Source: Scenedesmus sp. PABB004 (taxonomy: Eukaryota). From it: DNA of 64,000 bases. Where the stretch lies: positions 310,001 through 374,000 of the forward strand of contig JABVCE010000016.1 of assembly GCA_014905635.1 (NCBI GenBank), given 5' to 3'. Every line of letters starts with the position of its first letter. The first letter of the stretch is position 1. This document shows, one piece after another, positions 3,501-60,854 of this stretch. The translations under genes and the position numbers were made by a program. The notes below the pieces were generated by a model. That model did no database searches, had not been told where the DNA came from, and saw only the letters and a list, made by a program, of their open reading frames with translations.

Positions 3501-6500
3501 CTCCCCCCTGCTCCGACTCCCGCCCGCACCTCTGAGAGCGTCTTGAAGTTGCCCGTGCTCTTGCTCATCTTCTCGCTGTTGAGCAGCAGGTGACCGTTGC
3601 AGCGGAACGACCCCGGGTTCTGTGCGCCGGCGGCACGCGGCGGGGCGCGCGCGCGCGCGGGCGGCAGCCGTGTCGGCCCCCTCTGCCCCGCAGCGCCGTC
3701 GCGCCGGCGCGCGCGCGTCGCCGCCTCCGCGCCCCCGCCCAGCAGCGGGCCGGCGCGGCAGCGCTCCTCCTGCGTTCACGCGCCTTGTCGCCGTTTGGCC
3801 AGACGGCGGTGTGCGAGTAGAGGCTGAATGTGAGGTGGTTCTGGATGAGGTCCTTGCCGCTCACGCGCAGGTCAAAGGGGTACCAGAACTCAAACTCACG
3901 CCGCATCGCCGACAGCGTGGCCTCCTGGATCGCGCACCCGGGCGGGTAGGGCCTGCGGCGCGCGAGTGTGTGCGGCGGCGGCGGGAGCGTGCGTGCGTGT
4001 GAGCGCGCACCCTCACCCCCGCACCCACACGCGCACACGCATGCCACGCACACGCACGCGCACGCGCACCCACACCCACCCACCCACACGCACACGCACA
4101 CACGCACCCACACCCACACCCACACCCACACACGGCTCTCACCCGCCAAGGAAGATGTAGTCCCACACCTCGTGCGTGAGCGCCTCGGGCGGGATGGGCC
4201 CCGGCGTGCGGCCGTACATGTCGTCATTCTAACGAGGAGGGGAGGGGGGGGTAGGGGGCCGGTGGCGGCGCGGCGGAGGCGGCGGCGGGCGGGGGCGGGG
4301 GCGGCGAGGGGCGGAGGAGGGGCTCAGCAGCGGGAGGAGGGCGGAGAGAGAGGGGGAGGGAGGTTGAGAGGGAGCGAGGGAGGGAGAGGGAGAGGGAGAG
4401 GGAGGGAGGGAGGGGCGTGTGTGGCCCCCTCAAAGTGGCTGCGCCGGCGACGGGGCGCGCGCGGCCGCCGTGGGTAAGGGCGCTGTGCTCTGTGCAGGGC
4501 GCTAGTCACGCGCCGACCACGGGGTGGGCTGGCGCGCCGGCTTAATGCGCTGCAGGGGTGCGTTGGCGCGCGGCGCGCGGGGCGCGCGGCGCGTGCGGTG
4601 TGGTGCGGGGGCCAGCGGCCGCAGGCGCCGCGGCGGCGCGCGGCGCGCGCGGGCGCGCGGGCGGCGCGGCGCCGGGCGCGGCGGGGCGGCGCCTGGACGC
4701 CGCGCCGGACTGGGGACCGGCGGCCGTTCACAGGTGCCCGCCGCGCCGTGCCGCACGCCGCACGCCGCGCCGCGTGCCGCACGCCGCGCCCGGCCGGCCG
4801 AGCACGCGCGTCATCGGGCTGTCGTCCGGCTCAGCGCCGCTGGCGCGGAGCGACGACAGCACGATGAGGCGCGTGCTCGGTCGGCTGCCCGTCACACGCA
4901 CAACATAACAAACACAGGAACAAACGGAATAACACAACAAACAGGTGCGTTGTACGCACCTGGAGGTACTGCGCGATGGTGTAGTAGGCCATGTAGATGG
5001 TGCTGTCGCTCAAGGACTCGATCAGGTACTGCTCGTCCCACGGCAGCCGCGTGCCCAGCCCAAACGACCGGCTGCACGCCCACTGCTGCAGCCAGCCTGC
5101 GCGGCGGCGCGGGCGCGGCGCGGCAGGTCAGCCCCGGCGGGCTGTGTCCCTGCCGCCGCCGATCCACCCCCCGCCGGGCAAGGGCGCCGCGCGCGCAACA
5201 CACGGCGCACCGAGGCAGTGCCGGAAGCCGTTCTTGGTCTCCTCGCTGTAGCACTCCATGGCCTCGAGCGCGGCCGACGTGGCCGCCTGCCAGCCGGGCT
5301 CGCCGTAGGTGAGGTACCACTGGTCGGTCAGCGCGACGACGCACTCGTCGCCGCTGCGGCTCATCACCTGCGCGCGGCGGGCGGGCGGGGTGGGCGCGGC
5401 GCGGGCGCGGGCGGGTGCGCGGCGGCGTGAGTCAGCGTGTCGGCGCGCGCGCCGCCGGCCGGGCGCGCGAGGAGGCGCGGAGGGGAGGCCAGGCGCGCTG
5501 GTGCCGGACGGCCTCGCAGCGAGGCGCGGCGCCGCGCGGCGCCGCCGAGCCAAGCCCGCCGTGCGCGCGCGCACACGCACGCACCGGCTTCTCGGGCTCG
5601 CTGTACGGCAGCGCGGCGCCCGAGGCGAGCAGCTCGTCGCGGATCAGCGGCTTGGCCTCGCTGACCTTGCGCCCCGCGTGGGGCCCGACCTTGAGCACGC
5701 CGTCGGTGAAGCCCTGGGGTGCAGGGTTTTGGGGTTTAGGGTGTGTGTGTGTGGGGGGGGGCAGCAGGAGGGATGACAAGGGGCGTGAGAGAGAGAGGCG
5801 AGGGAGGCGGCGGAGGGTGTGCGAGAGCGAGGGAGGGGCGGCGTGGCGTGTGCGGCGCATTCAGGGCCCGACCGGCACGGGGGCGCCGGGGCAGCCAGAC
5901 AAGCGGCGCGGGGGGTCGCTCTGCGCAGGCCACAGTCACGCGCCGACCATGGGGCAGGCTGGCGCGCCGGCTTATAGGCTGCGCTGCGTGCGCGCGCCGC
6001 GCGCGTGCGCGCGCCCCTGCAGCGCGGGCCGGCCAGAGCAGGGCCACTGACGGTGCACCGCATGGGCGCGAGCCCGCAGTGCTCGATCAGTGAACTTGCT
6101 CTGACCGGCCGCCCCGCGCAGCGGCGGAGGCCCGCGGCGAACGCAGCCCCCCTCCCTCCCGCACAAGCCGGTCGCGCCCCTCCCAGCGCTGCACGCCCCT
6201 CCCGCGCCGCACGCCCTGCGCCGGCGGCGCGCCCCGCGCCCCCTCCCCGCCCCCCCCCCCTTGCCCCTGCGTCACCTTGAGGTACACGAGCTGCTTGGCC
6301 TCCGCCAGCTTGGCGGTGTCGTTCTGGCTCTGCACCTTCAGCTGCTCGCACACCACCTGCGGGCGCGCCGGCGCGCGGCGCGGGTCGGCGCACGCTCCGC
6401 AGCACGCGGCGTGCAACACACGGACAGTGCGCGGGCAGTCCGCAGGCAATGCGCGGGCGATGCGCAGGCGGCGGTGCGCGGGGGATGCGCAGGCGCGCGC

Positions 6501-59185: not shown

Positions 59186-60854
59186 ATGGAGGAGCGCGGC
59201 GCTGGCCCTGAGAGCCGGCTGCGCACCATCGCCCGCCACCTGCTGGGCGGCGGCTCCTCACAGACCGGGGTCTGCCCAAGCTGCGCGTGCAAGGTGCGGC
59301 GGCAGCGGCGGCGGCGGCTGTGCCCACACGCTGCGGCGCACGCGCGCCCGCGGCGCTCAACGCCCGGCGCCGCCGCGCGGCAGGGCGCCGCGGGCCGGCC
59401 GGCGCCGCTGGAGCTCAAGTACAGCGCGGAGGTCAAGGACGCGCTGGCGGCGGGCCGGCCGGTGGTGGCGCTGGAGAGCACGATCATCAGCCACGGCGCG
59501 CCGCGGCGCCGCTGCCCGCCGCCGCTGCCCGCCGGCGCTGCGCGCTGCGCGGCGGGGCCCAGCCGAGCGTCCTCCCCCGCCCGCCCGCTGCCCGCTCCCA
59601 GGCATGCCATACCCGCAGAACATGCAGACGGCGCTGGAGGTCGAGGCGGTCGTGCGGCGGCACGGCGCGGTGCCGGCGACCATCGCCATCATCGCCGGCC
59701 AGCCCTGCATCGGTGCGGCGGCCGCGCTGCAGCCGCGGCAGCGGCGGCGGCGGCGGCGGCGGCGGCGACGCGCCCGCGCCCGCGCCCGCGCGCGCCGCGC
59801 AGGCTGCGACCGCGCGCAGCTGGAGCACATCGCGTCGCGCGGCGCGTCGGTGCGCAAGGTGTCGCGCCGCGACCTGCCGCTCGTGCTCGGGCAGGGCCTC
59901 GACGGCGCGACGACGGTCAGCGCGACCATGCTGCTCGCCGCGCGCGCCGGCATACGCGTGTTTGTCACGGGCGGCATCGGCGGCGTGCACAGGCGCGGCG
60001 CAGCGGCGGACACGGAGCGCGCTGCGCAGCGCAGCGCAGCGCAGCGCGGCACCGGGGCGCGTGCCGGCGCGGCGGGCTATGTGCGGCGCGCCGACAGCCC
60101 CGCGCGCCGCCGCGCCGCGCGCCGCGGCGGCAGGGGCGGGCACGTGAGCATGGACGTGTCGGCCGACCTCACCGAGCTGGGGCGCACGCCCGTCGCGGTG
60201 GTGTGCGCGGGCGCCAAGTCGGTGCGGCGCGGCGCGGGCGCGGGCGCGGCGCGAGCCCGCCCCAGCCGGCCCTGCTCCACGCCGCGGCCGACCGTGCCCA
60301 CCCCCGCCGCCAGGTGCTGGACATCCCCCGCACGCTGGAGTTCCTGGAGACGCAGGGCGTGGCAGTGGCCGCGTACGGCGCGGACGAGTTCCCGGCCTTT
60401 TTCAGCCGCCACAGCGGCTGCGCCGCGCCCGCGCGCGTCGACACGCCGCAGCAGTGAGCCGCGGCGCGCGCGCGCGGGCGTGCAGGCGGGCGGGCGCGCG
60501 GCGCGGGCCGCCGCCGCCGGCCGGCCGCTCACCGCCGCGCCGGCGCCGCGCCGCGCCAGGGCGGCGAGCATGGTGCGCGCGGCGGCGGAGCTGCAGCTCG
60601 GCAGCGGGCTGCTGCTGGCGGTGCCCATCCCAGAGGCGCACGCGGCCGAGGGCGCGGCGATACAGGCGGCGATCGAGGAGGCGCTGCGCGAGGCCGAGGC
60701 GCGGGGCGTCGGCGGCGCGCAGGTCACGCCGTTCCTGCTGGAGGCGATCCGCGCCAAGACGGGCGGCGCGTCGCTGGCGGCCAACATCGCGCTGGTGAAG
60801 AACAACGCCGCCGTGGGCGCGCAGGTCGCGGCCGCGCTCATGGCGATGTCGTGA
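59186..60854 (+). CDS. psuG: Pseudouridine-5'-phosphate glycosidase (PsuG/IndA family; plant PUMY type), 7 exons
   Basis: VVALESTIISHGMPYPQN, GATTVSATM, VFVTGGIGGVHR, DVSADLTEL, GAKSVLDIPRTLEFLETQGV, VTPFLL; N-terminal PTS2 RLRTIARHL. Confidence 0.94.

Follow-up and report, generated by a model that had tools for sequence, protein, structure and literature searches.

Homology-placed GC-AG introns form about a quarter of the introns in conserved genes of the GC-rich green alga Scenedesmus sp. PABB004

In animals and plants, U2-type introns that begin with GC instead of GT are rare (about 1% of introns); Thanaraj and Clark reportedly studied them in 2001. In model organisms, compensation for the C at intron position +2 includes A at +3 and +4 and T at +6, as in GCAAGT. 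PMC3167603 also deals with the signals that compensate for a GC 5' splice site. In the haptophyte Emiliania huxleyi, GC donors account for 56% of 241 hand-mapped junctions, nine GC junctions were verified by reverse-transcription PCR (RT-PCR), and the pattern was attributed to a genome GC content of 65% (PMC4028052); another paper puts the share at about 55% (PMC7779022). In the pelagophytes Aureococcus anophagefferens and Pelagomonas calceolata, 14-17% of introns are predicted to be GC-AG, which was attributed to high GC content; a relative with lower GC content has 0.32% (bioRxiv 10.1101/2024.10.30.620910). Introner elements carry some of the GC donors of pelagophytes (bioRxiv 10.1101/2021.10.25.465678), and genome GC content correlates with splice-site GC content across kingdoms (PMC7072748). 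Here we describe a window of 64,000 nucleotides (64 kb) from the green alga Scenedesmus sp. PABB004 (contig JABVCE010000016.1, positions 310,001 to 374,000, forward strand), in whose conserved genes 28% of the introns that we curated are predicted to be GC-AG.

The window has a G+C content of 77-82% in every 4-kb bin (about 80% overall), and the genome as a whole, at 39.8 Mb and 78.5% GC, stands at the top of a table of Sphaeropleales (PMC12571836), in which Tetradesmus is at about 57%, Monoraphidium at 65-72%, and Raphidocelis at 71.5%. As in E. huxleyi, a very GC-rich alga has GC donors as a major class, together with the canonical AG acceptor; in E. huxleyi, these introns defeat gene predictors that allow only GT (PMC4028052, PMC7779022). 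However, E. huxleyi belongs to another supergroup, it has a higher proportion of GC donors (about 55-60%, versus about 26-28% here), and its junctions are backed by RT-PCR and expressed sequence tags, whereas those described here are predicted from sequence homology. The pelagophytes are similar in that a lower-GC relative carries fewer GC donors; here, lower-GC relatives have GT at orthologous sites. Unlike the introns of pelagophytes, which are stramenopiles with few introns per gene, the GC introns described here are short, and at least four of them lie at old, conserved positions. The rare GC-AG introns of animals and plants resemble those of PABB004 in having an AG acceptor and in offsetting the C at +2 through other, better-matching positions of the 5' splice site. 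They differ in that the intron side in PABB004 reads GCGCG(C/G), as in its own GT donors, and only the exon side compensates; GC-AG introns are also about 25-fold more frequent here. An initial annotation of the window had called the frequency very high, against about 1% in model eukaryotes, and it is, but the published precedents in E. huxleyi and the pelagophytes had been overlooked. Judging by titles and the beginnings of abstracts, we found no report of GC-AG frequency in Scenedesmus or other green algae, although the supplements of surveys may hold numbers per species. Judging by title, the papers that name strain PABB004 include no description of its genome and no study of its splicing, and the words "splice" and "intron" are absent from the paper that gives its GC content (PMC12571836).

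The initial annotation had counted 17 GC donors among 66 introns (26%) in six conserved genes. All 17 coordinates do have GC at intron positions +1 and +2 on the strand of the gene. Our denominator is smaller, with 17 GC donors among 61 curated introns (28%; prfC has 14 introns, LeuRS 25, DRC2 12, psuG 5, and RPS5 5), because the count of 66 also includes RPS19 and a few 5' introns that we did not model. The GC counts of 6 in DRC2 and 2 in psuG agree with the earlier ones (6/13 and 2/6), but we count 12 and 5 introns in these genes. In RPS5, two of five donors are GC and the other three read GT, as had been claimed. RPS19 had been described as having three introns, none of them GC-AG; the two of its three donors that we read (45388 and 44735) are GT. 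For LeuRS, we used the 25 introns of a public model, the NCBI protein "leucine--tRNA ligase [Scenedesmus sp. PABB004]" (P0137), which is identical at 1773/1773 residues to the spliced translation of 14035..562 on the − strand, although two of its acceptors (8859 and 7000) look wrong (see below). The same model is the only basis for the 11 introns of an adjacent TruD-like gene; with these included, there are 72 introns, with 52 GT and 20 GC donors, and all 72 acceptors are AG. The 20 GC-AG introns are listed here, with exon bases in lower case and a caret at the exon-intron boundary (L002, L003, and L004 are metagenome loci that are discussed below):

prfC (RF3), 27673..27810, + strand, cag^GCGCGG...GCAG, phase 2; 3/3 homologues
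prfC, 29518..29681, + strand, gag^GCGTGC...GCAG, phase 1; 3/3 homologues
prfC, 30195..30341, + strand, aag^GCGCGG...GCAG, phase 0; 3/3 homologues
prfC, 30857..30982, + strand, cag^GCGCGG...GCAG, phase 0; 3/3 homologues
LeuRS, 6620..6852, − strand, donor 6852, cag^GCGCGC; 5/5 homologues and P0137
LeuRS, 6357..6502, − strand, donor 6502, cag^GCGCGC; 5/5 homologues and P0137
LeuRS, 3620..3783, − strand, donor 3783, aag^GCGCGT; 5/5 homologues and P0137
RPS5/uS7, 33609..33782, − strand, donor 33782, cag^GCGCGC, phase 2; contiguity with PDB 8auv_d
RPS5/uS7, 33231..33404, − strand, donor 33404, cag^GCGCGG, phase 2; contiguity with PDB 8auv_d
DRC2, 46767..46858, + strand, aag^GCGCGC; spliced alignment
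DRC2, 47153..47275, + strand, cag^GCGCGC; spliced alignment, GT ortholog in L004
DRC2, 47517..47643, + strand, aag^GCGCGC; spliced alignment, GT ortholog in L004
DRC2, 47896..48024, + strand, cag^GCGCGC; spliced alignment, GT ortholog in L004
DRC2, 48148..48263, + strand, cag^GCGCGG; spliced alignment, GT ortholog in L002, L003, and L004
DRC2, 49213..49385, + strand, cag^GCGCGG, phase 2; spliced alignment
psuG (Indigoidine_A family), 59496..59601, + strand, acg^GCGCGC, phase 1, the sole case without exonic AG; 12/15 homologues
psuG, 59993..60133, + strand, cag^GCGCGG; 12/15 homologues
TruD-like gene, 13676..13810, − strand, cag^GCACGC; public model P0137 only
TruD-like gene, 12718..12905, − strand, cag^GCACGG; public model P0137 only
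TruD-like gene, 11664..11849, − strand, cag^GCGCGA; public model P0137 only

To place the junctions, we used a purpose-written aligner of proteins to genomic DNA that scores BLOSUM62 similarity only, with a linear gap cost and introns in phases 0, 1, or 2. Donors come from a chosen set of dinucleotides (GT or GC), acceptors are AG, and the flanking bases are not scored. All four GC donors of prfC were recovered with each of three homologues, and all three of LeuRS with each of five; both psuG donors were recovered with 12 of 15. For DRC2, three of the five homologues (the Tetradesmus proteins) recovered all six GC donors and P0245 recovered five; P0244, a metagenome open reading frame that aligns poorly (score 363), recovered none. 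For RPS5, 33179-33871 (− strand) is open in one frame through both GC introns, and we searched its translation against solved structures. The uS7 chain 8auv_d in the PDB matches with residues 96-124, 125-192, and 193-210 contiguous and with no residue missing or extra across either GC intron. Overall, by homology-guided alignment or by contiguity with the PDB chain, all 17 lie where removal of an intron is needed to restore the conserved reading frame.

The donors of the two classes are alike on the intron side and differ on the exon side. The initial annotation had given the consensus as G(T/C)GCG(C/G), and the 72 curated donors bear this out (+3 is G in 68, +4 is C in 59, +5 is G in 70, and +6 is C or G in 60); at +2, only T or C is seen. 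GT donors read G^GTGCG(C/G), with G at −1 in 47/52, G at +3 in 50/52, C at +4 in 40/52, and G at +5 in 50/52. GC donors read (C)AG^GCGCG(C/G), with C at −3 in 14/20, A at −2 in 19/20, and G at −1 in 20/20, and their intron side (+3 G in 18/20, +4 C in 19/20, +5 G in 20/20) fits the organism's own U2-type GT consensus. Among the 17 GC donors that were claimed originally, all but prfC 29518 (GCGTG) begin with GCGCG. It had been remarked that the GC donors lack the usual A at +3 and +4. This is true, but it is equally true of the GT donors (GTGCG), and therefore G(T/C)GCG(C/G) is a genome-wide 5' splice-site dialect rather than a peculiarity of GC donors. Other properties do not separate the classes visibly: the median intron lengths are 143.5 and 147 nt, GC introns span 92-233 nt, and acceptor tetramers are mostly GCAG^G in both. 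Mean intron G+C content is 85% in the GT class and 88% in the GC class.

In contrast, exonic AG precedes 19 of the 20 GC donors but only 18 of the 52 GT donors (P = 2.5e-6, Fisher test), which agrees with the earlier statement that GC donors almost always follow an exonic AG. Without the TruD-like gene, the counts are 16/17 and 17/44 (P = 1e-4), the exception among the GC donors being psuG 59496, which follows CG. We also scored each donor for its match to the canonical U1-complementary consensus as it is generally known (CAG^GTRAGT). The exon side matches better in GC donors than in GT donors (2.65 versus 1.73 of 3, P = 3e-5). Owing to this gain on the exon side, GC donors do not differ from GT donors in their total match (5.70 versus 5.94 of 9, P = 0.44).

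The initial annotation had suggested checking whether orthologous introns have GT donors in relatives. Four aligned DRC2 proteins, scanned against metagenome contigs, gave six loci (L001-L006), and we aligned protein P0243 to each. G+C content is 54% in L004, 55% in L003, and 70% in L002; L001 and L002 are two contigs of one 70%-GC relative. At four of the 17 GC introns, all of them in DRC2 (P0243 positions 132, 180, 229, and 270), L004 has a GT intron at the same position and in the same phase. The sites in L004 and in the window are ctgcag^GT and ctgcag^GC at position 132, atgaag^GT and atgaag^GC at 180, gagcag^GT and gagcag^GC at 229, and ctccag^GT and ctgcag^GC at 270. Position 270 is also GT in L002 and L003. 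L001 and L002 themselves use a GC donor at position 135 (cgccag^GCAAGC). For the GC introns at positions 68 and 486, we found no counterpart at the same position in these short contigs. The GT donors at matching positions in relatives suggest that these four introns stayed at conserved positions, where their GC donors arose from GT donors or interchange with them. The intron at position 68 (46767-46858) is found at 74 in L001, L002, L003, L005, and L006 and at 81 in L004, always in phase 0, which may reflect intron sliding or independent loss and gain.

We think it very probable that these are ordinary U2-type GC-AG introns, amounting to about a quarter of introns, in which drift from T to C at +2 is offset by the end of the exon. 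GC-biased substitution (by mutation bias, biased gene conversion, or both) would turn T to C at +2. The C would be tolerated and fixed only where the exon end (CAG at −3 to −1) adds pairing with the 5' end of U1 small nuclear RNA (snRNA), so selection would preserve the total strength of the 5' splice site. The standard U1/U6 machinery would then splice these introns in the way that rare GC-AG introns are spliced in other eukaryotes. The initial annotation had also invoked GC pressure, and this part is in line with a window of 77-82% GC, with the GT donors at four of the six DRC2 GC introns in a relative at 54% GC, and with surveys that link genome GC to splice-site GC (PMC7072748). It had further proposed relaxed recognition of the 5' splice site, which the data do not bear out: +2 is only ever T or C, the C is nearly confined to sites behind an exonic AG, and the total match is equal.

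A second possibility is that the spliceosome has co-evolved with the genome. The 5' end of U1 (canonically ACUUACCUG), the ACAGAGA box of U6, or associated proteins would be altered in such a way that the cognate site becomes G(T/C)GCG(C/G), with C at +2 serving as well as T. This would account for the unusual GCG(C/G) at +3 to +6 in both classes of donors, with hardly any A at +3 or +4, and for a GC share (28%) so far over that of model organisms. We consider it quite unlikely because dependence on an exonic AG is much commoner among GC donors than among GT donors, which points to compensation for a mismatch and not to equivalence, and because the two classes match the canonical consensus equally well overall. 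Both facts argue that C at +2 still acts as a mismatch, as would be expected with a canonical U1 more than with an adapted U1. Also, drift at weakly constrained positions can produce GTGCG, as in relatives at 54-55% GC the +4 position varies (A, C, T, or G) while G at +3 and +5 is mostly kept. Variant snRNAs are not required by the data; no snRNA genes were found in the 64-kb window (Rfam at gathering thresholds, 0 families). The earlier observation is confirmed and its interpretation was half right, in that GC pressure is supported and relaxed or altered machinery is not indicated. A bolder form of this idea is that PABB004, possibly the most GC-rich green-algal nuclear genome sequenced and maybe the one with the highest share of GC-AG introns in Viridiplantae, has shifted its recognition (the U1 5' end, the U6 ACAGAGA box, or U1C/Prp8) to G(T/C)GCG(C/G), with +4 and +6 no longer paired canonically. 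This seems unlikely, but if it were true, the alga would be a natural experiment on how far the code of the 5' splice site can drift.

Third, the junctions could be mis-modelled, with true donors at nearby GTs and GC boundaries that are artefacts of placing exon ends by conservation. GC dinucleotides are everywhere: GC is the commonest dinucleotide (the 4.1 kb of prfC contain 902 GC and 125 GT), and alignment scores could rise simply because GC offers more choices of donor. We therefore compared GT alone, GT plus GC, and GT plus one decoy dinucleotide (GG, CG, CC, CA, AG, TG, and others; 6-9 decoy sets). GT plus GC had the top score in all 12 gene-homologue tests (five for prfC, two for DRC2, two for LeuRS, and three for psuG), and alignments restricted to GT lost 106-522 score units per gene. 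No in-frame GT was found within 11 nt of any of the 17 claimed GC donors: the closest are at least 12 nt upstream, which would lose at least four aligned residues, or at least 42 nt downstream, which would add at least 14. Furthermore, the residues of uS7 are contiguous over both RPS5 introns, and the same positions are introns in relatives. Finally, the heptamer AG^GCGCG occurs at just 24 sense-strand sites among the 4877 GC dinucleotides of the six genes, and 16 of the 20 chosen GC donors sit at one of them. AGGCGCG is used as a donor about as often as GGTGCG is (16/24 versus 35/48 sense-strand sites). The GC-donor pattern is therefore beyond chance, and we regard mis-modelling as very unlikely.

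The aligner did also make motif-less "GC introns" in stretches of low complexity or poor conservation. We dropped candidates as artefacts if they had no donor motif, if the homologues disagreed, or if they lay at a low-complexity or unconserved terminal position. These were prfC donors 26860, 26884, 27037, 27136, 28232, and 29098; LeuRS donors 9044/9056/9059/9065 (with acceptor 8950), 9455, 9928, 7557/7559, 7086, 1521, 1001, and 586, along with three long jumps from the neighbouring gene; DRC2 donors 47398, 47218, 48686, 48632, 49521, and 49570 and all five from P0244; and psuG calls that were supported by a single homologue. Most of the dropped introns had GC "donors", so if any of them are real, the GC share would be higher than stated. 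Boundaries shifted to AG...GC or to CG were rejected because of lower scores and non-AG acceptors.

It is hardly credible that errors of assembly or base calling made true GT donors look like GC by a T-to-C change at +2, since, although extreme GC content harms some sequencing chemistries (as noted for E. huxleyi reads, PMC4028052), random errors would not strike 17-20 donors at +2 or track exonic AG, and two independent metagenome contigs (L001 and L002) carry an identical GC donor. A U12-type reading was rejected because the U12-type 5' splice site is RTATCCTT (PMC2846911), whereas T at +3 and an ATCC core are absent from all 72 donors and all of the GC donors are GC(G/A)(C/T)G.

Several points weigh against our reading of ordinary GC-AG introns with exon-side compensation. 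The junctions were placed by homology, and excision at these boundaries is a prediction. Protein alignment by itself fixes a boundary only to within 1-2 nt, and the nearest decoy, GT plus CG, which is one base off GC, scored only 10-45 units below GT plus GC; for this reason, the parse also leans on the invariant AG acceptor and the common motif. P0137, which has six GC donors including the three claimed in LeuRS, is not independent support because it was predicted from the same assembly. The compensation test used a generic consensus and not the alga's own U1, and orthologous GT donors are known for just four of 17 introns. Lastly, the sample is six genes in 64 kb that were picked for conservation by the initial annotation, and DRC2 alone gives six of the GC donors, so the genome-wide share could differ.

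As for the genes themselves, Pfam matches on single exons back the names that had been given to psuG (Indigoidine_A), RPS19 (Ribosomal_S19e), and RPS5/uS7 (Ribosomal_S7), and identify the neighbour of LeuRS as TruD. An exon of DRC2 had no Pfam match of its own, but the gene's full-length relatives go by the name of dynein regulatory complex subunit 2. The best relatives of one exon of prfC, which encodes a plastid-type RF3, are from sphaeroplealean green algae (Raphidocelis at 84%, Tetradesmus at 83%, and Monoraphidium at 82%). The relatives of prfC (27100-31050) and DRC2 (46460-49670) in Tetradesmus obliquus have nearby locus tags (OEZ85_001807 and OEZ85_001813), which suggests that the linkage of these genes is conserved.

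The public model P0137 (1773 aa; 562-14035, − strand) fuses a TruD-like pseudouridine synthase (about 14035-10369) to LeuRS (from about 10215) via an intron at 10216-10368. The fusion is probably an annotation chimera, as full-length relatives of LeuRS have about 1030-1150 aa and the real alignment starts at exon 10049. Two acceptors within LeuRS are also probably wrong, to judge from the homologues. In the intron 8859-9067, acceptor 8859 skips a Lys-rich stretch that is aligned in homologues from 8949, and in the intron 7000-7564, acceptor 7000 removes CLLELTGQ, which is covered in homologues from 7023-7026. LeuRS may have a fourth GC-AG intron, the one after 9067: keeping the Lys-rich exon start at 8949 needs a donor other than GT, and otherwise the GT at 9067 must be joined to a weak downstream acceptor.

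The LeuRS introns also contain repeated sequences. An element of about 340 nt occurs twice, at 94% identity and in the same orientation (1092-1429 and 7059-7396); one copy takes up most of the 446-nt intron 1082-1527, and the other lies within the 565-nt intron 7000-7564, of which it covers a part. No further full copy was found in the window. The element may be mobile or introner-like, given its small size and its two copies. Another segment, of 41 nt, is shared at 93% identity (72% over about 220 nt) by 4504-4544 and 5934-5974, which lie within two other unusually long LeuRS introns (4229-4959 and 5714-6275). Many introns consist largely of tandem or low-complexity G- or C-rich repeats, such as (CA)n at 809-1000, CACCC-like repeats at 4020-4140, GGGAGA-like repeats at 4336-4430 and 8585-8718, and (GGGT/GGGC)n at 6614-6709. 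The same has reportedly been noted for the introns of E. huxleyi.

Gene predictors that allow only GT donors, or are biased towards them, will mis-model about one intron in four here, and probably in other very GC-rich chlorophytes as well. The one public model that we compared, P0137, appears to be in error at two other LeuRS introns and runs two genes together. This type of phenomenon is already known in very GC-rich algae, and the green-algal instance is new while the mechanism is not: it is an independent case, beside those of the haptophyte and the pelagophytes, of GC content shifting the donor dinucleotide. What PABB004 offers is a rule within one genome, that an exon ending in AG is needed for C to be allowed at +2 (as in 19/20 GC donors), which quantifies how selection on the total strength of the 5' splice site limits compositional drift.

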